Positions 1,152-58,529 of a DNA stretch of 64,000 bases are shown in pieces. A program made the translations under genes and the position numbers. Numbering within the stretch: position 1 is the first letter of the stretch; every line of letters starts with the position of its first letter. The notes under the pieces were generated by a model. That model saw only the letters and a list, made by a program, of their open reading frames with translations, ran no database searches and was not told the origin of the DNA. This DNA comes from Verrucomicrobiaceae bacterium (GTDB taxonomy: Bacteria > Verrucomicrobiota > Verrucomicrobiia > Verrucomicrobiales > Verrucomicrobiaceae): positions 9,272 to 73,271 of the forward strand of contig CANIBP010000007.1 of assembly GCA_947466075.1 (NCBI GenBank), given 5' to 3'.

Positions 1152-1577
1152 TCAGGGACCGGTGGCGCGCTGAATGCGCGCTGGCACGTCGTTGATGCTA
1201 TAGCCAGCTTCACGCAAGGAATCCCACACTTTGACCAGAATGCCGAGCGCGGCAGTGGTATCGGCCTGGAGTTCGAGTTTCATACCGGGCTTGGCGTCCT
1301 TCAGCGAGGTAATGGCGATGGCGAGTTTGTCGAGTTCCACAGGCTTGCCATCGAGGAAGATTTTCTGCTCTTCATTGATGCTGATGGCGACACGTGATTC
1401 AGGTGCCTCGGAGGAACCACCGAGAGATTTGGACTCCGGCAGGGTGATCTTCACCTGCGTTTTCTCCTTTTTGAACGTCGTGGTGGCGATGAAGAAGATC
1501 AGCAAGATGACCATGATGTCGATGAGCGAGACGATGGGAATCGTCGGCACGGATCGGCGGCGGGGGCGCAGGTTCAT
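1152..1577 (-). CDS. exbD: biopolymer transport protein ExbD/TolR
   Basis: 141 aa. Basic N-terminus and a single TM with a conserved Asp (IPIVSLIDIMVILLIFFI). The periplasmic domain has an ExbD-like pattern. Lies downstream of exbB. Confidence 0.85.
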   Translation of the reverse strand: MNLRPRRRSVPTIPIVSLIDIMVILLIFFIATTTFKKEKTQVKITLPESKSLGGSSEAPESRVAISINEEQKIFLDGKPVELDKLAIAITSLKDAKPGMKLELQADTTAALGILVKVWDSLREAGYSINDVPARIQRATGP

Positions 1578-1595
1578 GGCAGCGTGCGTGAGGGT

Positions 1596-2312
1596 TCAGG
1601 CTTGCGAACGCTGCACCTCAAAGTGCTGGTAAAAATGCTGGATGGTCTCCTGCATGATGGACTCGACACGCACCGCTAGAGCATCGAGACGACGCACAAA
1701 GTAGGTATGCAGGAGCACGGAAGGCACAGCGACAAACAGGCCCGCGATGGTGCAGCGCAGCGCCACGCCGATCTCATGGGCGATGACGGCGGTGTCAGGG
1801 GAACCATCGCCACCTGTACCAAAAGCGGAGAACATACCAACGAGGCCGCTGGTGGTGCCAAGCAGGCCGAGCAATGGCGCGACGGTGACCATCACTTCCA
1901 GCAGCGGGATACCGGTTTCGAGGCGATGGATTTCCTCACGCGCCTTGATCTCGCAGGCGGCGTGGCATTCCTGCTTACTGGTGAAGGCCCCACTGATGGC
2001 CATGGCCCCGAGGCGTGAGAGCATGGAACCATCATGCTCCAAAAAGTCCTGCAAGGGCCGGATATCGCCCTTCACGGCATAGCTGGGGATAGAGCGAAGC
2101 TGACTGACGACTCCTTTGGGCATGATGACCTGCTCACGCAGTTGCAACCACGCCAGGATGGAGGCGGTGATAGCGGCAATGGAACACAGCACGATGAACG
2201 CCATGACAAACCCACCGGTGGCAAGGAAATCATACACGAGTTGGAAGCCGGTAGGCGCAGGCTTGTCTGCAACAGCAAGGAGGAGATTAGTAAATAAGGA
2301 CATTGTATTCAA
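1596..2312 (-). CDS. exbB: MotA/TolQ/ExbB proton-channel protein
   Basis: 238 aa. MotA_ExbB signature APLLGLLGTTSGLVGMF ... IGVALRCTIAGLFVAVPSVLLHTYF. Its 5' end overlaps the 3' end of the tonB-like gene. Confidence 0.85.
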   Translation of the reverse strand: MNTMSLFTNLLLAVADKPAPTGFQLVYDFLATGGFVMAFIVLCSIAAITASILAWLQLREQVIMPKGVVSQLRSIPSYAVKGDIRPLQDFLEHDGSMLSRLGAMAISGAFTSKQECHAACEIKAREEIHRLETGIPLLEVMVTVAPLLGLLGTTSGLVGMFSAFGTGGDGSPDTAVIAHEIGVALRCTIAGLFVAVPSVLLHTYFVRRLDALAVRVESIMQETIQHFYQHFEVQRSQA

Positions 2313-3525
2313 TTTTCAGGCGCTCTTGGTCATTCATGGGGAGCGAAGGGATGACATCGGCGGGAATGGGCGGGATTTCCGCATCACGAATCGCCTGGAG
2401 GGTGAATCCGGTGAGCACGGGGTTAGACTCCTTGTCGTTCACAATGCGGAGATCTTCCACCTTGCCTTTCTTGTTGACGAAAAAAGTGATCTTGAGGCTG
2501 CCATAGGTGACGCCATCACGGCGCAAAGTGCGGTAGATGTGCCACTTCTTTTCCACCTGACCGGTGACCTGACGAATGTAGCGACCTTTGGGCGTCTCCT
2601 CTGCATCGACGGAGTTTTCAGTGCCACGGTTGGAGATGGTTCCTTTCGTCTGGGACGTGCGGGTGAATGGAGTGAAGGCGTCGGCATCCGGATTGCGCGT
2701 CGAGCGCGTGACTGGCTCATCATCTACCACCGGTAGCGCCTTTGGAATCGGCTGCTGCTGGGGTGATTCTGGCATGGCCTGCGCGATTTCACGGGCCGGC
2801 GGCGTCTGCGGTTCTGGCTTCTGTGGCGTCGGTGGCGTATCAGGCACCGCTTCGGCTTTTTTTACCTCAATGGAGAGACGGTTTTTGTCCACGCTGGCCA
2901 AAGCTTTGTCCGCCTCCTCCATCATCTTTGTCAGTGGCGTCGATTCTGGCACCGTCTTGGCAACGGTTTGTGGCGGGGTGACCGGCTGCGGCGGTGGTGC
3001 GGCATCCTTGGGCTTGACGATAGAGGGCGGACTCGGTGGTGAAGGCGGCTGGGGTTGCAGCATGGCCGGCGTTGCCTTGGGCGACTTTGGCCGCGCATCA
3101 TCTTTCAATTCGCCGTCGCGAAAGTCGCGGTCGGCGAGTTCCAGCATGGGGATTTTGATGCCGTCAGTCGTGGGCATCGGCTCCGTGCCGTCGGGAAACG
3201 GCGCTTTGACTGACGCGGCTTTCGTGTTGCGGTCAGCGATGAAAGCGGCGTTTTTGGGCGCAGTTTCAGCACGCTCATTCTGCGCCGTGCGAATGTAGAT
3301 CTCGGATTTTTTCGGCGGGGGCGGCAACAGCGGCGGTTCAGGAATAATCTGGTCGGGGAACAGCAGCACGACTTCCTTTTCCTTCGGCACCGCCGTAGCC
3401 TGCTGCCACAACCGCCGTGCGGCCTCACCAGCAAACATCCACGCCAGAATCAAAAAAAGCACCGCATGCAACACCAGAGAGCCGGTGATGGCGATGCGAA
3501 GGTTATTGTCTCGATGAGCGGTCAC
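2287..3525 (-). CDS. TonB-like energy transducer (GTG start)
   Basis: An N-terminal TM (LRIAITGSLVLHAVLFLILAWMF), a long Pro-rich spacer (PPPPKK, PQPPSPPSPPS, PPPQPVTPPQ) and a C-terminal TonB_C-like block (GSLKITFFVNKKGKVEDLRIV). First gene of the tonB-exbB-exbD operon. The codon at 3523-3525 is cac on the plus strand, so the start is GTG. Confidence 0.7.
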   Translation of the reverse strand: MTAHRDNNLRIAITGSLVLHAVLFLILAWMFAGEAARRLWQQATAVPKEKEVVLLFPDQIIPEPPLLPPPPKKSEIYIRTAQNERAETAPKNAAFIADRNTKAASVKAPFPDGTEPMPTTDGIKIPMLELADRDFRDGELKDDARPKSPKATPAMLQPQPPSPPSPPSIVKPKDAAPPPQPVTPPQTVAKTVPESTPLTKMMEEADKALASVDKNRLSIEVKKAEAVPDTPPTPQKPEPQTPPAREIAQAMPESPQQQPIPKALPVVDDEPVTRSTRNPDADAFTPFTRTSQTKGTISNRGTENSVDAEETPKGRYIRQVTGQVEKKWHIYRTLRRDGVTYGSLKITFFVNKKGKVEDLRIVNDKESNPVLTGFTLQAIRDAEIPPIPADVIPSLPMNDQERLKIEYNVLIY

Positions 3526-46247: not shown

Positions 46248-48578
46248 ATGGCTGCGAAATCCCCCAAAACTCCTTTTCCATGGCCTGCGCTGTGGATGCT
46301 AATGACGTGCGCCTTTGCGGCACCGGCGCAGCATCCTGGCGCAGCGATTTACCAGAAGCTCTGCGCAGAGTGCCATGGGGATCGTGGACAGGGTGTGGAG
46401 GATGAATACGATGAAGCGCTAGTCGGCGAGAAGACCATCGAGGCGCTGGCCCGGCAGATCGACCGCACGATGCCGGAGGATGCGCCGCAGAAGAGCACGC
46501 CGAAAGATTCCAAACTGATCGCGGAGTACATTTACGATGCCTTTTACTCGCCGATGGCCCAGGCGCGCCTGAATCCAGCGAAGAAGGAACTGGCGCGGCT
46601 AACGATCGACCAGTTCCGCAACAGCGTGATGGATGTGATCGGCCGTTTTCGCATGGGGCCGGGCTTTGACCGTCCGGTGAACGCGGAGCAGGGCCTGAAG
46701 GCGACTTACCGCGGTGTGGAGCTGCCGAAACCGGGCGAGAAGGCCGTGGACACAACACCCAAGAAGGGCATCAAGGCGAAGCGCCCGAACAAGACGATCG
46801 AGAAGGTGGAGCCGGTGATTTCCTTTCACTGGGGTCCAGACAGCCCGGACAAGGCGGTGCTGGAGGCGGAGCAGTTTCAAAACCGCTTCGAGGGCAGCGT
46901 GGTGGCGAATGAGACGGGCGTGTATGAGTTCGCGGTGAAGTCAGAGAATGGCTTCCGCTTGTGGATCAATGACACGAACGAGGGAGATGCGCTGATCGAT
47001 GGCTGGGTGAGCGCCGGGCCGCAGGTGCGGGAGGAGAAGAAGAGCCTCTATCTGGTTGGCGGCCGTGCCTACCGGCTGCAATTGGAGCATTTCAAATTCA
47101 AAGAGAAGTCCGCGTCCATCGAGCTGTGGTGGAAGACGCCGCATGGCGTGAAGGAGCTGATCCCCGCGCATGCACTGCGCACGGAGCGCACCCGCGAGCT
47201 GATGATCGTGAGTACGGAATTCCCCGCTGATGACAGCAGCGGCGGCTATCCACGCGGCACGACGATTTCAAAGGCCTGGGACCAGGCGGTGACGGATGCG
47301 GCCATCGCCACGGCGGAGCATGTAGTTGAAAACCTTGACGAACTTGCGCAGACGAAGGCGGCAGCGCCGGATCGCGGCGAGAAGCTGCGCAAGTTCGCGA
47401 ACACGTTCGTCGAGGCCGTCTTCTGCAGGCCGTTGAGCGAGGACATGAAGCAACTTTTCATCGAATCGCATTTCAAAGCGGCCAAGACGCCGGAGACGGC
47501 GGTCAAGCGCATCGTGATGCTGACGCTAAAGTCGCCGCAGTTTTTGTATCCGAACCTGCGCGAAGACGAAGCCACGGATGATTTTGACGCGGCTTCACGG
47601 CTGGCGCTGACGCTGTGGGATTCGATTCCTGACAAGAAGCTCGCGCAGACCGCCGCAGCGGGAAAACTCAAGACGCGCGAGCAAATCCAGGCTGAGGCCC
47701 GGCGGATGCTCGCGGACTCGCGCACGAAGGCAAAGCTGCATGGCTTCTTCCACCAGTGGCTGGATCTGGAACGCGCCGAGGGCACCAACAAGGACCCGAA
47801 GATCTTCCCGGACTTCACACCCGAACTGCTGGCAGACTTGCGCGAGTCGCTGTTGCAATTCATCGACGAGGTTGTGTGGAGCGAGAAGTCCGACTACCGC
47901 GAGCTGCTTCAAGCGGATTACTTGTTGCTCAACGAGCGCCTAGGCAAATTCTACGGCCATCCGGTCACGGGTGAGGAATTTCAGCGTGTGGGCTTTGATC
48001 CGAAGCAGCGGGCGGGCGTGGTCACGCATCCGTATCTGCTCGCCTCGCTCGCTTACACGAAGCAGTCGTCGCCGGTGCATCGCGGCGTGTTTTTGACGCG
48101 CAACATCGTCGGCATGTCACTGAAGCCGCCGATGAAGGCGGTGGTGTTTGAAGACAGCCACTTCAATCCGCAGCTCACGATGCGCGAGAAGATCACCGAG
48201 ATGACACGCAGCGGCGGCTGCATGGCCTGCCACAGCATGATCAATCCACTCGGTTTCAGCCTTGAGAATTTCGACGCCGTGGGCCGCTGGCGCACGAAGG
48301 ACAACAACAAGCCAGTCAACCCCGTGGGCGAACTCACGACTGCGGAGGGCAAGACCGTGCGGCTCACCGGGCCGCGCGACATCGTGAACTACGTCGCGAA
48401 CAACCCCAGCGGTCACCGCGCCTTCATCCGGCATCTGTTTCATCACCTCATCAAACAGGAACCTTCCGCGTATGGCATTGCCACGCTTGAAAACCTCCAG
48501 CGCGACTTCGCCGCCAACAACTGCAACATCCAAAAGCTCATCCTCGACATCGCCATCGTCGCGACTGAGTTGAAGTAA
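46248..48578 (+). CDS. DUF1587/DUF1592/DUF1595/DUF1588/DUF1585-type protein with CxxCH haem motif and PA14-like insert
   Basis: CAECHGD near the N-terminus. A PA14-like segment (GVYEFAVKSENGFRLWIND...YRLQLEHF). C-terminal GGCMACHSMINPLGFSLENFD, typical of this PVC family. Confidence 0.85.
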   Translation: MAAKSPKTPFPWPALWMLMTCAFAAPAQHPGAAIYQKLCAECHGDRGQGVEDEYDEALVGEKTIEALARQIDRTMPEDAPQKSTPKDSKLIAEYIYDAFYSPMAQARLNPAKKELARLTIDQFRNSVMDVIGRFRMGPGFDRPVNAEQGLKATYRGVELPKPGEKAVDTTPKKGIKAKRPNKTIEKVEPVISFHWGPDSPDKAVLEAEQFQNRFEGSVVANETGVYEFAVKSENGFRLWINDTNEGDALIDGWVSAGPQVREEKKSLYLVGGRAYRLQLEHFKFKEKSASIELWWKTPHGVKELIPAHALRTERTRELMIVSTEFPADDSSGGYPRGTTISKAWDQAVTDAAIATAEHVVENLDELAQTKAAAPDRGEKLRKFANTFVEAVFCRPLSEDMKQLFIESHFKAAKTPETAVKRIVMLTLKSPQFLYPNLREDEATDDFDAASRLALTLWDSIPDKKLAQTAAAGKLKTREQIQAEARRMLADSRTKAKLHGFFHQWLDLERAEGTNKDPKIFPDFTPELLADLRESLLQFIDEVVWSEKSDYRELLQADYLLLNERLGKFYGHPVTGEEFQRVGFDPKQRAGVVTHPYLLASLAYTKQSSPVHRGVFLTRNIVGMSLKPPMKAVVFEDSHFNPQLTMREKITEMTRSGGCMACHSMINPLGFSLENFDAVGRWRTKDNNKPVNPVGELTTAEGKTVRLTGPRDIVNYVANNPSGHRAFIRHLFHHLIKQEPSAYGIATLENLQRDFAANNCNIQKLILDIAIVATELK

Positions 48579-48597
48579 CCTACATCGCACCACCTTC

Positions 48598-49917
48598 ATG
48601 AAACACCTCGACCGCCGCCAATTCCTCCGCGACCTCGGTATCTCCGCTGGGGCGCTGCCGTTTCTCACCGGCCTGCCAAGCCTCACCGGCGCTCCCGCTC
48701 CGCAAAAGCGCCAGCGGCTCGTGATCATGTTTTCGCCAAACGGCACGCTGCCAAACGAGTTCTGGCCCGACCAGGAAGGCGCGGAGTTCAGCTTCAAGTC
48801 GATCCTCAAGCCGCTGGAGCCCTTCAAGAAGCAGATGCTGATCCTCCACGGCATCGCCAACAAGGTGACGGGCGATGGCGACAGCCACATGCGCGGCATG
48901 AGCTGCCTGCTGACCTGCGACGAACTGCTCAAAGGCAACATCATGGGCGGCGGCGGCAATCCTGCCGGCTGGGCCAGCAACATCTCCATCGACCAGGAGA
49001 TCAAAAACTTCCTCCAGAGCCGCAAGGAGACGAAAACGCGCTTCGGCTCGCTCGAATTCGGCGTCGCCGTGCCGGAGCGTGCCGATCCGTGGACGCGCAT
49101 GAGTTACGCCGGTGGCAACCAGCCCATCGCGCCCATCGACGATCCGCATCAGATTTTGAAGAAGGTGTACGGCAAGATGAAGGACAAGGAGAGCCTCGTG
49201 AGCATCCTCGATGACGTGCGCGAGGACTTGAAGCGCGTCTCCTCCAAGCTCAGCGCTCGCGACAAGGCGCTGCTCGACCAGCACATGACGCTGGTGCGCG
49301 GATTGGAGCAGGATCTGGCGGAGGCGGACAAGCAGGGCAAGCTGCTGCACCCCGTGCCGGCCGTCGATCCCAGCATCGAACTCGTGAACGACAACACGCC
49401 GCAGATCAGCCGCATCCAGATCGACCTGCTGGTCAATTCGCTCTCCAACGACATGGCCCGCGTGGCCACGCTGCAATACATGCGCAGCGTCGGCATGGCC
49501 CAGATGCGCTGGCTCGGCGTCGAGGAGGGCCACCACAGCCTCTCGCACGATCCGGACGACAAGAAGGACAGCTACGAGAAGCTCATGAAGATCAACACCT
49601 GGTTCGCCGGTGAGTTTGCCTACATGGCCAAACGCCTCGCCGAAACGCCGGAGCCCGCCGGTGAAGGCAGCATGCTCGACAACACGCTGCTGGTGTGGAC
49701 CAACGAACTCGGCAAAGGCAACACGCACACGCTCGACAACATCCCCTACGTCATGGTCGGCGGCGGATTCGGCTTCAAGATGGGCCGCTCGCTTAAATTC
49801 GACAAAGCAGCGCACAACCGCCTCTGGATGTCCGTCGCGCATGCAATGGGCCACGATTTGAAGACCTTCGGCAAGAAGGAGCTGTGCGAAGGCGGGGCTT
49901 TGAATCTGGCAGCGTGA
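48598..49917 (+). CDS. DUF1552 protein, Tat signal
   Basis: MKHLDRRQFLRDLGISAGALPFL. The usual partner of the DUF1592-type gene upstream. HHSLSHD block. Confidence 0.85.
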   Translation: MKHLDRRQFLRDLGISAGALPFLTGLPSLTGAPAPQKRQRLVIMFSPNGTLPNEFWPDQEGAEFSFKSILKPLEPFKKQMLILHGIANKVTGDGDSHMRGMSCLLTCDELLKGNIMGGGGNPAGWASNISIDQEIKNFLQSRKETKTRFGSLEFGVAVPERADPWTRMSYAGGNQPIAPIDDPHQILKKVYGKMKDKESLVSILDDVREDLKRVSSKLSARDKALLDQHMTLVRGLEQDLAEADKQGKLLHPVPAVDPSIELVNDNTPQISRIQIDLLVNSLSNDMARVATLQYMRSVGMAQMRWLGVEEGHHSLSHDPDDKKDSYEKLMKINTWFAGEFAYMAKRLAETPEPAGEGSMLDNTLLVWTNELGKGNTHTLDNIPYVMVGGGFGFKMGRSLKFDKAAHNRLWMSVAHAMGHDLKTFGKKELCEGGALNLAA

Positions 49918-49962: not shown

Positions 49963-51399
49963 ATGAGCGATCCAACCCGCAGCCCCGAGAGCATCGAAAC
50001 ATCGTTTGCCCCTTTTCGTCAGAAAATGCAGGCCGCTGGCCTTAGCGAGTCTGCCATTCGAGCTTTTCGCGGTAGTTACGCGGCCTTACTGGCCGGTGAG
50101 ACGGGGATGATCCCGGAGAGCACCATTGCCGCAGCGAAAGAGCTGCCTTGTGCCGATACGCTCACTCCGCCGGATGCCGCACGCGCGGCGACACTGCTGA
50201 AGCAAACCGTGCTCATCAAGCTCAACGGCGGCCTCGGCACAGGCATGGGTTTGGAGAAGGCCAAGTCGCTACTGCCGGTGCGTGGCGACGACACGTTTCT
50301 CGATTTGATCGCGCGGCAAATTCTCCGCATGCGCGCTCAGACCGGCAGCCAAGTTCCTTTGTTCATGCTCATGAACAGCTTCAGCACCTCGGCGGACACG
50401 GCGGCGCATCTCGCAGCGAGATTCCCTCAACTCGGTGGAACGGAGACCTGGGAACTCATGCAGAATAAGGTTCCCAAGGTGCTGGCTGGTTCACTTGAGC
50501 CTGCGACTTGGTCGGCTAATCCTGATCAAGAATGGTGCCCGCCAGGTCATGGTGACATTTATGCGTGCTTGGTTGGTTCTGGCTGGCTGGATCGCCTGCT
50601 CGGCGGTGGTGTGCGCTATGCATTTGTGTCAAACTCGGACAATCTCGGTGCCACGCTCGATCCGGCGATCTTGGCTTGGTTTGCCGACAGCGGCATGCCT
50701 TTTGCCATGGAAGTCACTCGTCGAACGGAGTCGGATAAGAAGGGTGGTCATCTCGCGGTGCGGTTGCGTGATGGACGCTTCCTGCTGCGTGAGTCCGCGC
50801 AATGCCCGAAGGACGATGAGAGTCATTTCCAAAACATTGATCTCCATCGCTACTTCAACACAAACAACCTGTGGATTGATCTCCAAGCGCTCAAGATCGC
50901 GCTCGAAGCGAACGAGGGCCTCATCCCGCTGCCGCCGATCATGAACAAGAAGACGGTCGATCCACGCGATAGCAGTTCACCTGCGGTCATCCAAGTGGAG
51001 ACGGCGATGGGCGCAGCGATCGAATGCTTTGCCGGCGCTGGTGCCATTGAAGTATCGCGAGTGCGCTTTGCCCCAGTGAAAACCACGAGCGATCTACTGG
51101 CTGTGCGTTCCGATGCCTACGAGCTCACCGAAGACTTCTGCCTGTGTCTGCACCCCAGCCGCAACGGTCAACCACCGCATCTACATCTCGATCAAAAGCT
51201 CTGCAAACTGGTGGATGGCCTGGAGCAGAACTTTCCGCTCACACCGAGTCTATTACACTGTCACAGCCTGCTAGTGCATGGCCCAGTCGAATGTGGCGCG
51301 GGTGTCGTCTTCAAAGGCGATGCTGTGATTCACAATCACACAGGCACAGCAGTGAAGCTCAAAGCCGGTGTGCATGAAGGACAGATCAGCGTGGATTGA
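49963..51399 (+). CDS. UDPGP-family (eukaryote-type) UTP--glucose-1-phosphate uridylyltransferase
   Basis: KLNGGLGTGMGLEKAKSLLPV, NSFSTSADT, PPGHGDIY and NSDNLGA blocks of the UDPGP (PF01704-type) family. This is not the GalU type. Confidence 0.85.
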   Translation: MSDPTRSPESIETSFAPFRQKMQAAGLSESAIRAFRGSYAALLAGETGMIPESTIAAAKELPCADTLTPPDAARAATLLKQTVLIKLNGGLGTGMGLEKAKSLLPVRGDDTFLDLIARQILRMRAQTGSQVPLFMLMNSFSTSADTAAHLAARFPQLGGTETWELMQNKVPKVLAGSLEPATWSANPDQEWCPPGHGDIYACLVGSGWLDRLLGGGVRYAFVSNSDNLGATLDPAILAWFADSGMPFAMEVTRRTESDKKGGHLAVRLRDGRFLLRESAQCPKDDESHFQNIDLHRYFNTNNLWIDLQALKIALEANEGLIPLPPIMNKKTVDPRDSSSPAVIQVETAMGAAIECFAGAGAIEVSRVRFAPVKTTSDLLAVRSDAYELTEDFCLCLHPSRNGQPPHLHLDQKLCKLVDGLEQNFPLTPSLLHCHSLLVHGPVECGAGVVFKGDAVIHNHTGTAVKLKAGVHEGQISVD

Positions 51400-51426
51400 T
51401 CTTTGCTGCCAAAGAAACATCAATCC
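51393..51426. terminator. imperfect hairpin spanning both stop codons of convergent genes (candidate bidirectional terminator)
   Basis: ggattgat-ctttg-ctgc-caaag-(aaac bulge)-atcaatcc. This gives 13 bp in total. There is no flanking U/T tract, hence the low confidence. Confidence 0.3.
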
Positions 51427-52958
51427 AGCGAGCGCTTTGGCGGTGCGATGGTGACAGCCGCAGCAGCACCCGCTTTGGCACGAGCCGCAGTGGGAGCGAG
51501 ACGTTGAACCTCGTAGCCAGTCACATTTAGAGCGAGATCTAGTTTGGCAAGAAATTCCCAGGTAGCGGCGACACCGACTTCGTCGGCGAGTTTACGAGCT
51601 TCAAGATAGGCCGAAAAAGCATCCGGCATAACTTGGAAAACGGCGACACCATTAGGATCTGCCTTGATGTCGCGCATGAGGCGGATGTAGGCAGAGTTAG
51701 GCTGTTTCATGGCTTCAATGGTCTCCCCGCCGCCGCCTTTGGGTGTGAGAGCCAGCTGCACATAGGGCAAGGTGGGTATGATTTTCGGTTCCATGGCATA
51801 CGAGCCAGAAATGAGCGGATTGGAGGCAGCACGTTGCAGCAGTGCTTGAATTCGCGCGGCATCGTAGATGGTACGTGCCTTGCTGATGTTCTCGATACCT
51901 TTGACCTTACCGAGATCGTGGAAGTAGTCGGTGACATCCTTCGGTGTGGCCTTCACCTCTTTGGACAACGCACCCCATGAAAAAGTGATCTTATTACCTG
52001 CCGCGACGGCTTTGATCACAGGCGTCAAAGGATCGCGGGAGGGGTCGAGTTTGATCCACTTGGAAACATCTCCCTTCGCAGCAGCCGCGACAGCTTCAGC
52101 AACGACGGGCAAAGGCTGACGAGTCGGCACAGCGATGTCGGTAAGCGCGGCGAGAAGCTGCTTCGTGGGAACAATTCCACCGTCTGACAATGCTTTATAA
52201 GCCTGCGCGGCCAGCTCCATCTGCACTCGATCGACCAATGGCGCGATTTCAGGCCAGGCTTTCTGAGCATTGGCAGGCGAACCTAGAATGCCTTCGAGCA
52301 GTTTGGCAAAGGTCGGGTATTCCACTTTCTGGAATTCGAGCTGTGACTTCACCTTCTCCATGCCGTCGAGGATGGGTTGAAGGAACTTAGTTTGATTGAA
52401 GGTGAGCACGCCTTGTTTGGCGACGAGGATACGCGTTTCGACCGGCTTTTCAGGATAGGGGCGCGGATTGGGCAGGCGCACATAGGTTGGCGGCGGTGGC
52501 TTGAACTCCGGCGTCTGATCGAGCAATGCCTTCAAACGTTCCAACTCTTGCAGCATCTTGTCGGTCTCCGCCTTGGCCAGTTCACGTTCCTTCTGGCGGT
52601 CTTCGAGCTGCTTTTTGAAAACATCGAGGTCCATGAATTTCATCTTGGACTGCATCTCGGAGGTATCGACGGTCTTGAGGTCTTCGATGGCTTTTTTAAG
52701 CGCGGCCTCGGCCTGTTTTTGCTTTTCCTTGATCTCCTCGGGAGTCAGGAGCTTGGGCAACTCTTTGACCTGCTGGGTGATCTCCTTGAGTTCTTCAGGA
52801 GTGACCGGCGGCAGGTCAGAGAGCACTTTCTTGACGGCGCTGGTCACGCTGAGACCGACCATGACGAGCACGATGATGAGTACGCCGACGACGTTGGTCA
52901 TCGTGTCCATCAAGGCAACGAACGGCAACTCCTGCTCCTCGTGTTTGCGTTTCGACAT
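51420..52958 (-). CDS. ExbD/TolR-like single-pass membrane protein with long coiled coil and large periplasmic region (512 aa)
   Basis: N-terminus MSKRKHEEQELPFVALMDTMTNVVGVLIIVLVMV (basic stretch, then a TM with a central Asp18). ~110 aa of K/E/Q-rich heptads. The C-terminal GVAVFQVMPDAFSAYLEARKLADEVG resembles the ExbD C-domain. Confidence 0.7.
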   Translation of the reverse strand: MSKRKHEEQELPFVALMDTMTNVVGVLIIVLVMVGLSVTSAVKKVLSDLPPVTPEELKEITQQVKELPKLLTPEEIKEKQKQAEAALKKAIEDLKTVDTSEMQSKMKFMDLDVFKKQLEDRQKERELAKAETDKMLQELERLKALLDQTPEFKPPPPTYVRLPNPRPYPEKPVETRILVAKQGVLTFNQTKFLQPILDGMEKVKSQLEFQKVEYPTFAKLLEGILGSPANAQKAWPEIAPLVDRVQMELAAQAYKALSDGGIVPTKQLLAALTDIAVPTRQPLPVVAEAVAAAAKGDVSKWIKLDPSRDPLTPVIKAVAAGNKITFSWGALSKEVKATPKDVTDYFHDLGKVKGIENISKARTIYDAARIQALLQRAASNPLISGSYAMEPKIIPTLPYVQLALTPKGGGGETIEAMKQPNSAYIRLMRDIKADPNGVAVFQVMPDAFSAYLEARKLADEVGVAATWEFLAKLDLALNVTGYEVQRLAPTAARAKAGAAAAVTIAPPKRSLD

Positions 52959-52964
52959 AGTGGG

Positions 52965-53873
52965 TCAGATGGTTTTCTTCGGCACCGGAGGCGGCGCGGC
53001 AGGCGGAGCTGGGACGGCAACGGGTGGCGGCGAGATTTTGCCGCGAAACTTTTCAAACATGGCGAGATCAAGTACGCCGCGACCAGGAATGGGCAGCTTT
53101 CCAACGCGCACCTTGTATTCGTTATCCGCACGACCGGCACCGTTGTTGAAAGCGCCCTGGCCATCGTCTCGAATCAAGAATAGCACGAGTGACTTTGGGT
53201 TCTTCGCCACTTCGGTGAGGAAATGATTGTAGGCCACATCGGCGACGACAACCTCGGCAGTGGCACTGAGACGATAATCCTCACCCCAAGCACCCAGAAT
53301 TTTCAAAGCGCCTGCACTGGCCTCGACGAAATAGACTTTCGTATCCGGTGCCATGCCGCTGCCGGAAGGCTGCACGATGACCGGCGGCACTTTTTTGTCC
53401 GGTGGCACCTCGCGTTTTTTGAGTTCGGCCATGAGCAGCGCGATTTCTTTCTTGCTGTCGAGCTGCTGCTTTTTCATGCCCTCGATTTCGAGCAGCAAAC
53501 CATCCAGCTCCTTCTGCATTTTCTGGCTGATCTTGAGGTTGGCCTCCTGGATGTCCTTCGAGGTTGAGAGCAACTTATAGAGCTTGATGTAGCGCTGCTG
53601 TTTTTCGTCGATCTGCTTCTGCAACTCATCAAGTGTGGCGAGTTTTTCCTTGAGCACGACCTCCTGCGCCTTCACTTCCACAATCTCTTTGCGCATGCGT
53701 TTGGCCGCCTGAGCCTGCTGAATTTCCTCTTCCGTGCGTCCTTCGGTCTGCTGTGTCTGTGAAACACATAGCACAACGATGATGAGAATCAGCACACCAA
53801 TGAGCGAGCACAGGATATCCAGAAACGGGACCAGGAGGATCTCGTCTTTGGCGGCATGACGGCGCTTTGCCAT
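52965..53873 (-). CDS. ExbD/TolR-like single-pass membrane protein with long coiled coil (302 aa)
   Basis: N-terminus MAKRRHAAKDEILLVPFLDILCSLIGVLILIIVV (TM with Asp19). ~120 aa of coiled coil. An ExbD-like C-domain (KVYFVEASAGALKILG...LVLFLIRDDGQGAF). A Pro-rich tail. Confidence 0.7.
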   Translation of the reverse strand: MAKRRHAAKDEILLVPFLDILCSLIGVLILIIVVLCVSQTQQTEGRTEEEIQQAQAAKRMRKEIVEVKAQEVVLKEKLATLDELQKQIDEKQQRYIKLYKLLSTSKDIQEANLKISQKMQKELDGLLLEIEGMKKQQLDSKKEIALLMAELKKREVPPDKKVPPVIVQPSGSGMAPDTKVYFVEASAGALKILGAWGEDYRLSATAEVVVADVAYNHFLTEVAKNPKSLVLFLIRDDGQGAFNNGAGRADNEYKVRVGKLPIPGRGVLDLAMFEKFRGKISPPPVAVPAPPAAPPPVPKKTI

Positions 53874-53908
53874 AACGATTCAGAAATGAATGGTGAAACG
53901 AGCGTGAG

Positions 53909-55348
53909 TCACGACTTGCTGAACCAGCCCTTCTTTTTGACTTGGTGAATGAGAATCTGCTTCCCGCCCAACTCCGAGAGCAGGTTGTTCAAAGATTGAA
54001 TGCCGCTGGCGAGTGCCCGGGTGTAATCTGTGGTCGATTTGACACTGTCATTCACTGCATTGGTCATGTCTTCGCGCATGCGGTTCAAGGTAATGGCAAA
54101 CTCGGAATCCACCCGCTGCTGGTGCGCAGCAGCACGTTTATCCAGGTTATCGGCCTGCTCTTTGATCTGTTTGGAGAGTGAGTTGAGATCGACGAGGAAA
54201 TCTTTCTGAGCGTTCGCCACGGCTTTGACCAGCGTGTCCATGATCCCGGTAGTGTCGCCACCGGCAATGCTGCCACCGTCATTGAGCCGAGGGAGAAGCA
54301 CTTCATTGCAGAATGAGTCGATGTCATTGAGGCAGTCATCCTCGGCCTTCATCATGGTGTTCAGCGGGAAATTCAGGAACATGGCGAGCACGAGGCCAAG
54401 CAACGTCGCATCGAAGGCCGTGCCCAGACCACCAGTCACTTTACCCAGCGTGCTGGTGACTTCTTTAAGATCGGTCATGTTGCCGAAATTCATGCCACCG
54501 ATAGCGTGGGAGAGTCCAATAACGGTGCCGATGAAGCCGAGGATGGGAATCGCCCACAGGAATGCTTTGAGCAGCGCGTAACTGCCACCGATGCGCATGC
54601 TGTCGATGTCCGACTGGCTGGAGAGCATGTTCGACACATCCCCCGCGTTTTGCTTCACCTCGAAGAGCTCCAACGCCTTGCGAATGCGGTTCACCATCAT
54701 GCTGTCGCGCAGGCGATGAGGCAATTTGTAGAGATTATCGATGAACTGGCCCACGTTGTCGCGGTTGATCTCCGCACCCATCTCCCACGGCAGCACATCG
54801 AGCAGCAGAGCTTTGCGCTGATGGCTGAGCTTTTGCAGCTTCAAGTAGAGAATCGACATGGCCCAAGTGAAGAACAGCGTGTTCGTGAAGCTGACCAGCA
54901 TGTGCTTGTAGAACAACGATGCTACGAACTGCATGCCTGTGTAAGTGGCCGGCGAGGTGCCTTCTGGCGCCTGGAATGGAAACAGAATGCCCACCCAGGC
55001 CAGAAACAGCACGAAGCCGATGGCGAAGCTCAAAAAGCCGTTCGGATTCGTCGGGTCGATCTCCTCCCAGCCACCACGCTCACCGCGTTCACTGCCACTG
55101 CTAGTAGGAAGTGGCTGCTCCGGCGCCGAAGTTCCGTGCTCATATTCGGCACCAAAGGCATCATTGTCCGCCGGAGGCGGACTCACCTCACTCGGAGCGG
55201 GCAGGCCGGAAGGCGGAGGCGGCGTAGCGGACACAACAGCCGTAGGGATGCTCAGCTTCGAGTTGCAGCCGGGGCAGCGGACGATTTTACCGGCCATTTC
55301 GGGCTCGGCCTTGAGCTGCATGTCGCAGTATGGGCATTTGAACGTCAC
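53909..55348 (-). CDS. Zn-ribbon-fused MotA/TolQ/ExbB-family proton-channel protein
   Basis: N-terminal CPYC-x17-CPGC ribbon and a Pro-rich linker. Two N-terminal TMs. The MotA_ExbB signature pair LWAIPILGFIGTVIGLSHAIG and GLGTAFDATLLGLVLAMFLNFP. A ~130-aa helical C-terminal tail. Confidence 0.8.
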   Translation of the reverse strand: MTFKCPYCDMQLKAEPEMAGKIVRCPGCNSKLSIPTAVVSATPPPPSGLPAPSEVSPPPADNDAFGAEYEHGTSAPEQPLPTSSGSERGERGGWEEIDPTNPNGFLSFAIGFVLFLAWVGILFPFQAPEGTSPATYTGMQFVASLFYKHMLVSFTNTLFFTWAMSILYLKLQKLSHQRKALLLDVLPWEMGAEINRDNVGQFIDNLYKLPHRLRDSMMVNRIRKALELFEVKQNAGDVSNMLSSQSDIDSMRIGGSYALLKAFLWAIPILGFIGTVIGLSHAIGGMNFGNMTDLKEVTSTLGKVTGGLGTAFDATLLGLVLAMFLNFPLNTMMKAEDDCLNDIDSFCNEVLLPRLNDGGSIAGGDTTGIMDTLVKAVANAQKDFLVDLNSLSKQIKEQADNLDKRAAAHQQRVDSEFAITLNRMREDMTNAVNDSVKSTTDYTRALASGIQSLNNLLSELGGKQILIHQVKKKGWFSKS

Positions 55349-55523
55349 GTGTGATTTCCTCCAGGGTGAATGAGAATTGAAATAGACGAGTCAGTACGTA
55401 GCGGAAAGCCAACTCCATCGACAAGAAGATTCTTGGGATGAAATCACTTTGTTGGTTTCTGGAGCGGCTGTTTCGCACAAATCCTTGCCATTGGCTCCCC
55501 CTGCCGCTTACATCTGCCTGCCC

Positions 55524-58500
55524 ATGTCTGCCGACCTCCCCGCTGCACTCGAGAAATTTGTCAGCTTCGCCCAGTCGCTTAAAGGTGACGAGAAGGGCGA
55601 GGCACCGATCTATCTCAACGCGCTGTTCCAGGCCTTCGGCCATGATGGCACGCAGCAGGCCGGGGCCACACATGAGCACCGCATCGCCAAAGGTGCCGGG
55701 GCGAAGGGCAAGAACTTCGCCGACCTGCTCTGGCCGCAGCGTGTGTTGTTCGAGATGAAGTCACGCGGCGTGAAGCTTGAGCGCCATTACGACCAAGCCT
55801 TTGACTACTGGACGCACATCGTCCCACACCGCCCGCCGTATGTCGTGCTGTGCAACTTCGATGAGTTCTGGATCTACGACTTCAACCAGCAGCTCTTTGA
55901 TCCCGTCGATAAGATCAAACTGGCAGACCTACCGCAGCGCTGGAGCGCGCTTGCCTTCCTGCTGCCGCATGAACAGAAGCCGTTGTTCGCGAACAATCGC
56001 GTCGAAGTCACCCGCAAGGCCGCCGCGAAGCTGGCGGAGCTGTTCCGGGCGCTGTTGCAGCGTGGCGAGGATCGTGCGCGGGCGCAGCGCTTCGTGCTGC
56101 AACTGCTCGTCGCCCTCGTGTCCGAAGACATGGGCCTGCTGCCCGATTTCATCCTCAGTCGTCTCATTCAAGAGTGCCGGGAGCAAAAGCTGAGCACGTT
56201 TGATCTAATCGGCGGCCTGTTCCGGCAGATGAACAGCGACAAACCCGCTCCTGGTGGCCGGTTCCAAGGCGTGCCGTATTTCAACGGCGGTTTGTTTGCC
56301 GACATCGACGCGCTGGACCTCAGCCGTGACGAGATCACGATCCTCGAACAGGCTGCCGACTTCGACTGGAGCATGGTGAAGCCGGAAATCTTCGGCACAC
56401 TGTTTCAGGCCAGCATGGACGATGGCAGCGCGAGCGGACGCGATGAACGTCATGCCTTCGGTGCTCACTTCACCAGTGAGTTCGACATTCAGAAAGTCGT
56501 CGGCCCCACCATCGTGCGGCCATGGCGCGAGCGCATGGCGAAGGTCTGGAACAAAGTCGGCCAGCTCAAGGAAGTGCTGCGTGACCTGCGCCTCTACCGC
56601 GTGCTCGATCCCGCCTGCGGCTCCGGCAATTTCCTCTATGTGGCCTATCGTGAACTGAAACGTCTGGAGCGCGAAATCCTCCTGCGACTCTCCGAGATCA
56701 GCAAAGGCGAGCCGCTGGAGACCGCCGTGTCGATTCATCAATTCTACGGTCTCGACATCATGCCCTTCGCCGTGGAACTCGCCAAGGTCACGCTCATGCT
56801 CGCCAAAGAACAGGAAGTGCGTGAAGCCGCCAAACTTCAGGATAGCGACGGCCTCCTCGTGCTCGAACAGCCGCTCCCGCTCGACAATCTCGACAAGAAC
56901 ATCGTCTGCGCGGATGCGCTGTTCACGGAGTGGCCGAAAGCGGACGCGATCATTGGCAATCCGCCGTATCTCGGAGCGAAGCTGCTCAAGCCTGAATACG
57001 GTCCCGATTATGTGAAGAAGCTGCGCAAAGCTTATCCCGAGATGCCAGGCATGGCAGACTTCTGCGTGTATTGGTTTCGCAAGGCACATGCCGCGTTGGA
57101 GGAATGCACAGAGGAAAACTCATGCGGCGGGAGAGCCGGGCTGGTTGGAACCCAGAACGTTCGCAACAACTACTCCCGCATCGGCGGCCTCGATTACATC
57201 GTCCGCGATGGCACCATCATCGAAGCAATCGACAATCAAGACTGGTCCGGCGAAGCCAAGGTGCATGTCTCGATTGTGAATTGGGTGAAGACGCAGAACC
57301 CCACTTTGCTGCCAGCCAAACGAATCATCTGGTCCAGAGTTGATCCTGCCAAGGGCAGCCGTCGCAAGGACGCCACCTCAACTGAAGGCAGCTCGCTCGA
57401 TTTGCGTGAGGTTGATCACATTAACTCGGCGCTGTCCGATGCAGTCGATGTGAGTGTGCTGGGTCCGCTGGCGGCAAACACCAAGCCGCAGCGCTGCTTC
57501 AACGGTCAGATGATCGGTCATGAAGGCTTCCTGATGTCTGCTGACGAACGCGAAAAGATGGTCACGCTCGAACCAAACACCCTGTGCGTGACTTACCCTT
57601 ACCTAAATGGCATGGACGCGCTCACGGGTGCCAGGCTTGATCGGTTCGTCATCGACTTTGAACAGCGGGACCGCTTTGAAGCAGAGGAATACCGGCTGGC
57701 GCTTCAACGCATTCGTGAGCGTGTCCTGCCAGATCGACAACGAAAAGCGGAGGAAGGAAAAGATGCTGACGGGAAGGTCCGATCACACCACAAGGCATTC
57801 CTGGCCCGCTGGTGGCAGCTATCCTTCGGCAGGCCGGAGATGCTGGCAGCCATCAAGCCACTAAACCGCTTCATGGCCTGTGCGTATGTGACCAAGCGCC
57901 CGATCTTCATGTTTGTCTCCACTTCTGTGAGACCGAGCAATCTGATCCAAGTATTCACCTTCGAGGACGATTACAGCTTTGGAATTCTGCAAAGCACCCT
58001 GCACTGGGTTTGGTTCACGACGAAATGTGGCAAGCTCAAGTCGGACTTCCGCTACAGCGCAGAATCTGTCTTCGACACCTTCCCCTGGCCGCAACATCCA
58101 ACACTGGCACAAATTGAAGCTGTTGCTGTTGCCGCCGTGGCAGTGCGCACACTGCGCCACGAGATCATGCAAAAGCTCGACTACTCGCTGCGTGAGCTTT
58201 ATCGCACACTCGAAGACCCCGGCGAAAACCCACTACGCAGCGCCCACGCCCGACTCGATGACGCGGTGCGTGCCGCGTATGGCATGCCGAAGGATGCGGA
58301 CATCCTCCAATTCCTTCTCGACCTCAACCTTGCCCTCGCGGCCAAGGAAAAGGCGGGTGAGCCGATCACGCCGCCTGGTCTGCCGCTGCCCCAAAGCGAG
58401 CATGCCCGATTCGTCACCGAAGACTGCATCAAGGCGGACCTCATCGACGGTGGCACCGATGAATCTCGCGCCGCTGCGGCTCACTTCCACAGCTCCATCG

Positions 58501-58529
58501 TGCAGGAAGAGCCGGCGAAATATGGTTGA
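55524..58529 (+). CDS. MmeI-like Type IIL restriction-modification enzyme (fused PD-ExK nuclease + N6-adenine methyltransferase + TRD)
   Basis: D-x9-E-x-K motif DLLWPQRVLFEMKSRG (55722-55760). SAM motif I VLDPACGSGNFLY. Motif IV IIGNPPYLG (NPPY at 56958-56969). A long C-terminal region. The start is placed at MSADLPAALEKF. Confidence 0.8.
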   Translation: MSADLPAALEKFVSFAQSLKGDEKGEAPIYLNALFQAFGHDGTQQAGATHEHRIAKGAGAKGKNFADLLWPQRVLFEMKSRGVKLERHYDQAFDYWTHIVPHRPPYVVLCNFDEFWIYDFNQQLFDPVDKIKLADLPQRWSALAFLLPHEQKPLFANNRVEVTRKAAAKLAELFRALLQRGEDRARAQRFVLQLLVALVSEDMGLLPDFILSRLIQECREQKLSTFDLIGGLFRQMNSDKPAPGGRFQGVPYFNGGLFADIDALDLSRDEITILEQAADFDWSMVKPEIFGTLFQASMDDGSASGRDERHAFGAHFTSEFDIQKVVGPTIVRPWRERMAKVWNKVGQLKEVLRDLRLYRVLDPACGSGNFLYVAYRELKRLEREILLRLSEISKGEPLETAVSIHQFYGLDIMPFAVELAKVTLMLAKEQEVREAAKLQDSDGLLVLEQPLPLDNLDKNIVCADALFTEWPKADAIIGNPPYLGAKLLKPEYGPDYVKKLRKAYPEMPGMADFCVYWFRKAHAALEECTEENSCGGRAGLVGTQNVRNNYSRIGGLDYIVRDGTIIEAIDNQDWSGEAKVHVSIVNWVKTQNPTLLPAKRIIWSRVDPAKGSRRKDATSTEGSSLDLREVDHINSALSDAVDVSVLGPLAANTKPQRCFNGQMIGHEGFLMSADEREKMVTLEPNTLCVTYPYLNGMDALTGARLDRFVIDFEQRDRFEAEEYRLALQRIRERVLPDRQRKAEEGKDADGKVRSHHKAFLARWWQLSFGRPEMLAAIKPLNRFMACAYVTKRPIFMFVSTSVRPSNLIQVFTFEDDYSFGILQSTLHWVWFTTKCGKLKSDFRYSAESVFDTFPWPQHPTLAQIEAVAVAAVAVRTLRHEIMQKLDYSLRELYRTLEDPGENPLRSAHARLDDAVRAAYGMPKDADILQFLLDLNLALAAKEKAGEPITPPGLPLPQSEHARFVTEDCIKADLIDGGTDESRAAAAHFHSSIVQEEPAKYG

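Follow-up and report, generated by a model that had tools for sequence, protein, structure and literature searches.

Ion-driven motors of the 5:2 kind power flagella, Ton/Tol transport, gliding, type IX secretion and Zorya defence, and each new branch has shown another use of one rotary core. What does a bacterium build when a MotA/ExbB-type channel gene is followed by two different genes for B-type subunits? The question is raised by three minus-strand genes, termed g1, g2 and g3, in a 64,000-nucleotide stretch of contig CANIBP010000007.1 from a Verrucomicrobiaceae bacterium (the window). A first-pass annotation made from the sequence letters had described them as an atypical stator-like operon with one channel and two distinct small subunits, and the description holds, with g1 matching PF01618 and g2 and g3 beginning with TolR-like N-termini. 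The open reading frame (ORF) coordinates also agree with the spacing given there, 35 nucleotides (nt) separating g1 from g2 and 6 nt separating g2 from g3. We propose that the trio is probably a proton-driven inner-membrane motor of the 5:2 kind with a 5:1:1 composition, in which the heterodimeric axle doubles as the transducer across the periplasm.

The channel subunit is the most readily recognized of the three proteins. Residues 221-332 of g1 match PF01618 (MotA_ExbB) with E = 2e-11 and 44.2 bits, beyond the gathering score of 22.9, bearing out the MotA/TolQ/ExbB signature that had been read in the gene by eye; g1 is a divergent MotA/ExbB-family protein. Four hydrophobic segments are present (residues ~105-123, ~140-170, 259-277 and 307-333), the second of which was read by eye from the sequence. 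Among 18 diverse homologs, down to 42% identity, no variation is seen at P268 and T275 in the third transmembrane segment (TM3) or at T315 and P328 in TM4, and we take these residues to be the equivalents of the channel-lining proline and threonine residues of MotA/ExbB. The large cytoplasmic loop is strongly conserved (LRDSMMVNRIRKxLELFE). In the C-terminal helical tail, the PADLOC ZorA2 model aligns through residue 455, and coiled-coil-type matches are also seen.

By profile comparison, g1 is distant from every characterised subfamily. Its NCBIfam scores are 20.5 bits for ZorA (cut-off 100), 16 for MotA (340) and 17 for TolQ (221), and a g1 family profile searched against all PDB sequences finds as motor matches solely 8vvn_C (E = 0.0023) and PomA (E = 0.016). 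We take 8vvn_C to be ZorA and 8vvn_B to be ZorB; the depositors name chain C 'MotA/TolQ/ExbB proton channel domain-containing protein' and chain B 'MotB-related protein'. JGI labels g1 homologs 'flagellar motor component MotA' or 'MotA / RPC12 zinc ribbon'. The zinc ribbon lies at the N-terminus, where C25, P26 and C28 are invariant and the first CPxC pair is conserved by visual inspection of the alignment. A Pro-rich linker follows, and then a conserved ERGGWEExDPxNPN motif before TM1, of which RGGWEExDPxN is invariant. The spacing of the zinc-ribbon cysteines (C5, C8, C25 and C28) resembles that of the GltJ/ZitP-type zinc-ribbon (ZnR) domain, which in GltJ uses C5, C8, C28 and C31 (PMC11135422). 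By analogy, the linker-borne zinc ribbon of g1 most likely has a part in regulation or placement.

The proteins encoded by g2 and g3 have a common architecture: a basic N-terminus leads into one TolR/MotB-like transmembrane (TM) helix, then come a helix of ~100 residues and a proline-rich hinge, and an α/β head follows. One hydrophobic segment is found in each protein, and the N-termini read MAKRRHAAKDEILLVPFLD19IL in g2 and MSKRKHEEQELPFVALMD18TM in g3. AlphaFold2 models g2 with a TM helix at 15-43, a single helix at 48-153 (predicted local confidence, pLDDT, > 90) and an α/β head at 179-273 (pLDDT 60-73). The g3 model is similar, except that its helices between 54 and 148 are of lower confidence than the g2 helix; the coiled-coil extension of both subunits, proposed earlier from heptads in the letters, is supported. 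The commoner form of g3 is 350-390 amino acids (aa) long, and the ~510-aa form found here carries an insertion in the head. This insertion is the best-predicted part of the g3 model (pLDDT 74-89) and has no Foldseek match. It comprises ~150 residues forming a helical bundle and a small β-meander, and one 660-aa homolog (P0251) seems to carry a second copy.

Family profiles of g2 and g3 align with each other over 279 columns in hhalign (probability 99.4%, E = 4e-21), and without the coiled coil the alignment probability is 95.7% for the N-termini and 62% for the C-termini. To judge from these profiles, the two genes are paralogs. Within the g3 family alignment Y451, R455, W467 and D512 are invariant, and the protein ends in [LIV]D in 222 of 225 representatives, following the Pro-rich tail; g2 carries a similar conserved motif, PxPGxGxxDL, near its end. 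This conserved terminus suggests a C-terminal recognition peptide for a partner. Searches of g3 against Pfam, NCBIfam and PADLOC return coiled-coil noise only, and the g2 and g3 family profiles match nothing significant among solved structures except coiled-coil proteins and, weakly, 8vvn_B. Foldseek comparison of both AlphaFold2 models with the PDB gives no match at E <= 0.001. The best matches for g2 are uS11-like α/β folds at E ~0.01, obtained with a low-confidence head model, and for g3 TolR (5by4) appears at rank 4 with E = 0.86, the head there being modelled at pLDDT 60-75. A match to 'HpsJ' (PF28006; NF038305, E = 1e-4) was set aside, as it covers the TM helix and coiled coil only and is faint among the Pfam hits.

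Are g2 and g3 simply enlarged ExbD/TolR proteins, as the first-pass annotation implied? A canonical ExbB/ExbD pair elsewhere in the window, whose ExbD had been pointed out in that annotation, serves as an internal control: its ExbD matches PF02472 with E = 8e-27 and 94 bits, and its ExbB matches PF01618 with E = 5e-25. The same PF02472 model gives 12.6 bits on g2 (cut-off 25.4, E = 0.14) and no match on g3, and among diverse homologs it is found at E <= 1 in 4 of 21 g2 sequences and none of 26 g3 sequences. Sub-threshold N-terminal matches of g2 include ZorB1 (E = 6.6e-5), TIGR02804 ExbD (E = 3e-4) and 8vvn_B (E = 0.058), and likeness to ExbD, TolR, MotB or ZorB is confined to the first 40-90 residues of the two proteins. 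Against a small ExbD/TolR profile, hhalign aligns just the basic N-terminus and the TM helix, placing the g2 and g3 Asp on ExbD D25 with probabilities of 45% and 11%, respectively. The g2 head aligns with the ExbD periplasmic domain at a probability of 0.8%, leaving the ExbD-like terminal blocks that had been noted in both proteins present as letters and without statistical support. An OmpA-like domain is not matched in g2, g3 or the 47 homologs scanned. These sequence comparisons do not support membership of g2 and g3 in the ExbD/TolR family, with which they have the N-terminal TM logic in common.

The trio is a stable genetic unit. In a collection clustered at 90% identity, g3 has 615 relatives and g2 907 at E <= 0.001, the g3 matches falling into 496 clusters at 50% identity; since homologs number in the hundreds, with E values down to 0, all three are real genes. 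The order g1-g2-g3 is kept in 79 of 88 fetched loci, and a contig end cuts the remaining 9. The linked loci include those of Chthoniobacteraceae, Roseibacillus, Phragmitibacter and three distant lineages, where the flanks are all different. Relatives of g3 occur in at least 527 species-representative genomes, and every homolog with a named source comes from Verrucomicrobiota, which fits the 'PVC-specific' envelope energiser that had been offered as one option. Going by such names, the organism of the window is Prosthecobacter-like. The 80 best loci of the genome-collection scan are all from Verrucomicrobiaceae, with wider breadth drawn from source names and single look-ups. Within Verrucomicrobiaceae the trio comes after a ribBA-ribH-nusB-ftsY housekeeping block, with ftsY directly upstream of g1 in 25 of the 88 loci, and trio identity declines gradually across loci. 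This pattern has the look of vertical descent, and the trio is, on present sequence comparisons, apparently a core module inherited across Verrucomicrobiota.

In the window itself, a complete MmeI-type restriction-modification (RM) gene stands between ftsY and g1, with N-terminal, helicase-spacer, methyltransferase, target-recognition and C-terminal domains and a GC content not distinct from its surroundings. No homolog of it occurs at any of the 88 related loci, and ftsY lies directly against g1 in a relative with 95% identity in g3. This indicates a strain-specific, recent insertion of a single gene, and because the RM gene is such an insertion its adjacency carries no meaning for the trio. 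The RM gene was therefore rejected as a partner, given that it is missing from the related loci.

The strongest hints of how the three proteins fit together come from the membrane segments. Asp18 of g3 is invariant in all alignments: it is present in 206 of 206 motif-matched representatives, and also in every listed non-match that is neither N-terminally truncated nor mis-started. Of 78 loci, 46 have Asp at position 19 of g2 and 32 have Ser, the Ser group including distant lineages, so the earlier statement that both proteins start like ExbD/TolR with a membrane Asp is correct for this locus and does not extend to g2 across the family. The g2 state co-varies perfectly with the TM segments of g3 and g1, in 83 of 83 scorable loci. 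Loci with Asp-type g2 (PFLDILCS) have g3 PFVALMD and g1 TM3/TM4 motifs GLSHA and AFDATL; those with Ser-type g2 (PFLSILAC) have g3 NLDSLMD, with a second Asp four residues upstream, and g1 GLS(Q/S/V)A and AFDTTL. Because the Ser-type g3 carries this upstream Asp, the g2-g3 pair always offers two acidic residues, differently distributed. Such three-way covariation is what contact between three TM segments would be expected to produce and, with the strict gene linkage, gives indirect support to a 5:2-type assembly. The stalks are matched in length as well. From the TM Asp to the Pro-rich hinge there are 144-149 residues in g2 and 144-151 in g3, in sequences down to ~30% identity, and these equal distances would fit an in-register, two-stranded stalk of fixed length. 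Across loci the g2 and g3 stalk lengths correlate at r = 0.10, the lengths being matched and their variation too small for a meaningful correlation.

Taken together, these features point to the following arrangement. A ring of five g1 copies would enclose two TM helices, one each from g2 and g3 paired as a heterodimer, in a 5:1:1 complex, and protons would pass via g3 Asp18 and the invariant Thr and Pro residues of g1 TM3 and TM4. In this scheme g3 Asp18 would be the obligatory proton carrier, with g2 as a partner that has Asp or Ser at the matching position. In the periplasm the two B-type subunits would continue as a parallel helical stalk, ~100 residues and some 15 nm long, beyond which would lie the proline-rich hinge and two unequal α/β heads. 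Proton flow could then turn or cycle the stalk against g1 and so do work at the peptidoglycan or outer membrane, with the g1 zinc ribbon, its linker and the C-terminal tail possibly acting in cytoplasmic regulation or placement. The likeliest task of the trio is envelope housekeeping, because the trio shows a core, vertical-looking pattern of inheritance and no cargo genes are linked to it. More tentatively, the trio may define a class of trans-envelope force transducers, so far from Verrucomicrobiota only, in which the axle is also the shaft, the two paralogs form an obligate heterodimer, Asp is required only on g3 (an asymmetric 5:1:1 motor) and the unequal heads, one of them ending in the [LIV]D-COOH tail, engage a partner in the wall or outer membrane; we hold this fuller version to be possible and somewhat short of an even chance.

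Several points weigh against a periplasm-directed heterodimeric motor. The 5:1:1 stoichiometry and the heterodimer are features we infer, as are the direction of output and the cellular task. The covariation of the TM segments divides two clades and may reflect one historical event. Homology of g2 and g3 to ExbD/TolR is sub-threshold and limited to the TM segment, their head folds are modelled at low confidence and have no significant structural match, and no peptidoglycan-binding, outer-membrane-binding or cargo domain is identified in the trio proteins. Lastly, the strongly conserved cytoplasmic motifs of g1 would equally fit cytoplasmic output.

This last point leads to a serious alternative, which we nevertheless consider rather unlikely: a stator in which the g2/g3 stalk and heads anchor to the wall, as MotB and ZorB do, and the g1 ring rotates, using its conserved loop, zinc ribbon or tail to work on a cytoplasmic partner, for surface movement or signalling. 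The four hydrophobic segments of g1, its conserved cytoplasmic loop, pre-TM1 motif and ~140-residue tail agree with such a design, as does the JGI name 'flagellar motor component MotA' for its homologs, and the top solved-structure matches, ZorA and PomA, both drive cytoplasmic output. Against it, neither g2 nor g3 has an OmpA-like or other recognised peptidoglycan-binding domain. No conserved cytoplasmic partner gene adjoins the trio in the lineages inspected, and five N-terminal domains on long flexible linkers would seem awkward for a rotating ring. An additional Ton/Tol motor, that is, a diverged ExbB-ExbD-ExbD or TolQ-TolR-TolR paralog energising a TonB- or TolA-type transducer encoded elsewhere, appears still less probable to us. 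JGI calls many g2 homologs 'biopolymer transport protein ExbD', and the PFLD motif of g2 matches ExbD PFID; yet the PF02472 model that recognises the ExbD of the window so clearly hardly touches g2 homologs and misses g3 altogether, the B subunits already possess their own periplasm-spanning stalk, and no TonB, TolA, vWA or TPR gene is linked to the trio in the lineages inspected. A related idea, that the trio simply replaces Tol-Pal, was rejected as unlikely, given that Tol-Pal clusters are reported sporadically in Verrucomicrobia (PMC8871954).

A further reading, raised as an option in the first-pass annotation, is a Zorya-like anti-phage defence system in which a ZorAB-type motor senses envelope perturbation, signals via the g1 tail and might cooperate with the RM enzyme. 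The best PADLOC matches are indeed ZorA2 (E = 3e-10) and ZorB1, chains C and B of 8vvn are the best PDB profile matches of g1 and g2, g1 has a C-terminal helical tail, and the RM gene lies back-to-back with g1. The PADLOC matches are partial, however, and NCBIfam ZorA_2, at about one fifth of its cut-off, is the highest of the corresponding scores. Neither the window nor the loci inspected contain ZorC/D, ZorE or ZorF/G effector genes, and the ZorB-type peptidoglycan-binding domain is missing. The distribution is also neither patchy nor island-like: the trio is spread over hundreds of species of one phylum in housekeeping synteny with gradually declining identity, its GC content is similar to that of the remainder of the window, and the RM neighbour is peculiar to this strain. 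We therefore drop the defence option as very improbable. A periplasm-spanning 5:1:1 motor with an envelope role remains our preferred reading, and the coordinates of its proposed parts are collected in Table 1.

Table 1. Positions of the trio genes, their parts and other features of the window
Feature	Position	Strand	Remarks
g1	53909..55348	-	MotA/ExbB-superfamily subunit, proposed pentameric channel ring; 479 aa, GTG start
g1 N-terminal zinc ribbon, residues 1-35	55244..55348	-	CPxC...CPxC; weak zinc-ribbon Pfam matches and PDB matches to LysW
g1 MotA_ExbB core, residues 221-332	54353..54688	-	TM3, periplasmic loop, TM4; PF01618
g1 C-terminal cytoplasmic helical tail, residues 340-479	53912..54331	-	~140 aa, ending in conserved KKKGWFS
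g2	52965..53873	-	B-type subunit 1; 302 aa
g2 transmembrane helix with Asp19	53760..53840	-	Ser in 32/78 related loci
g3	51420..52958	-	B-type subunit 2, g2 paralog; 512 aa
g3 transmembrane helix with Asp18	52836..52925	-	motif LMDxxTNVVG; Asp invariant
g3 lineage-specific insertion in head, residues ~205-365	51864..52346	-	absent from commoner 350-390 aa form
g3 C-terminal half of head (VAVFQVMPDAFSAYLEARKLADEVGVAATWEF) and Pro-rich tail	51423..51806	-	ends in conserved LD-COOH
MmeI-type Type IIG/IIL RM gene	55449..58529	+	not part of the module; between ftsY and g1; Pfam MmeI domains; PADLOC REase_MTase_IIG 1180 bits
Canonical ExbB (238 aa) and ExbD (141 aa) pair	1152-2312	-	Pfam

Neighbours of the trio in the window comprise the MmeI-type RM gene, ftsY, a UDP-glucose pyrophosphorylase gene and genes for DUF1592/DUF1552-type proteins, and window annotation agrees with the earlier remark that no TonB, TolA, Pal, OmpA, flagellar or TonB-dependent-receptor gene lies nearby. 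A promoter/terminator scan of the operon gives no signal exceeding shuffled expectation. The convergent UDP-glucose pyrophosphorylase gene and g3 end 20 nt apart (51399-51420), and no terminator-like hairpin is detected between them. At 46248-49917 on the plus strand lies a 'Planctomycete cytochrome/PSD' protein pair, the first protein having cytochrome c, PA14, DUF1595, DUF1592 and DUF1588 domains and the second being a DUF1552 protein; in one distant locus (L089), an analogous PSCyt/PSD1 and DUF1501 pair directly follows the trio. In another distant lineage (L088, 9321-14758), a gene for a prepilin-type N-methyl protein comes after the trio, then two for unknown proteins and one for a GYF-domain protein of 752 aa, an arrangement seen once. 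In Myxococcus GltJ, a GYF module cooperates with a zinc ribbon. A 412-aa ORF at 2287-3525, adjoining the canonical ExbB/ExbD pair, matches no Pfam family and may encode a TonB-like partner. Among the related loci, two lake-metagenome assembled genomes labelled 'Akkermansia muciniphila' (L011 and L036) carry Prosthecobacter-like trio loci with g3 65-79% identical, L011 with ftsY upstream, and the label looks wrong for both.

Literature searches (Akkermansia, Prosthecobacter, TolQ, ExbD, ZorAB homologs, HpsJ) found no description of the trio family. If the arrangement proposed here is right, the trio would add to the 5:2 motors a branch with a heterodimeric axle fused to its own periplasmic shaft. 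The Asp/Ser variation at the key position of g2 would then be a natural experiment on whether a 5:2 motor requires both of its proton-binding Asp residues. The trio would also mark an unrecognised, conserved envelope process in Verrucomicrobiota, which are abundant in soil, freshwater and gut. For annotation there is a word of caution, as ZorA/ZorB-like matches beside an RM gene can be housekeeping motors and do not necessarily denote defence.

How does the trio stand beside known systems? It lies outside the described 5:2 motor families, as had been suspected, with ExbD, TolQ, MotA, PomA and ZorA/ZorB scores far below cut-offs, and it departs from the defining features of each known family compared. 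Its nearest counterparts are ZorAB by sequence, AglRQS by gene content, GldLM by logic and paired 'transpore-helix'-vWA proteins by concept. ZorAB (8vvn) is the nearest solved relative by profile, through TM3-loop-TM4 of g1 and the N-terminus of g2, and it shares with the trio an A subunit with a C-terminal helical tail and a B subunit with a MotB-like TM helix. ZorB, however, is a homodimer whereas the trio has two different B subunits, the trio brings neither a peptidoglycan-binding domain nor effector genes, and its core, phylum-wide distribution contrasts with that of a mobile defence island. The tail differs too, spanning ~140 residues in g1 and several hundred in ZorA.

In the Myxococcus AglRQS gliding motor, compared here by description, one MotA/TolQ-like and two distinct TolR-like subunits are likewise encoded together, and the parallel drawn earlier between one channel with two TolR-like partners and AglRQS stands at the level of this one-A/two-B operon. 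The TolR-like AglQ and AglS are short and have neither coiled-coil stalks nor heads, and the Agl motor works with the large Glt complex. Glt-type gliding genes are not linked to the trio in the lineages inspected; unlinked partners are possible. Both systems also have a zinc ribbon on a flexible linker, carried in Myxococcus by GltJ (PMC11135422) and in the trio by g1. The GldLM/PorLM motors of type IX secretion and gliding resemble the trio in that a five-copy ring drives a two-copy subunit that serves as the long shaft across the periplasm. Here g1 belongs to PF01618, and no GldL or GldM model is among the Pfam matches of the trio and its homologs. GldM, moreover, is a homodimer, and the key acidic residue resides on GldL.

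TolQRA and ExbBD-TonB share a proton-driven ring of the MotA/ExbB superfamily, a B-type TM helix with Asp and a long periplasmic reach, provided by TolA domain II or the TonB linker. In the trio, by contrast, this reach is fused to the B subunits, where those systems have a separate SHLS-motif protein that docks at the side of the ring. Neither g2 nor g3 reaches the PF02472 cut-off, and g1 has four hydrophobic segments together with its zinc ribbon and tail. TolQ-like rings with paired 'transpore helix'-vWA proteins, as heterologous pairs without a separate tolR, are reported in Verrucomicrobia, and in them Asp-bearing B-type helices are likewise fused directly to a periplasmic effector domain (PMC12204202). 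They differ from the trio, in which g2 and g3 show no vWA domain and occupy the periplasm with a coiled-coil stalk and a small α/β head, and the g2 Asp appears dispensable. Overall, the motor logic of the trio is like that of GldLM, or of TolQR with TolA fused on, set within a ring that is MotA/ZorA-like.

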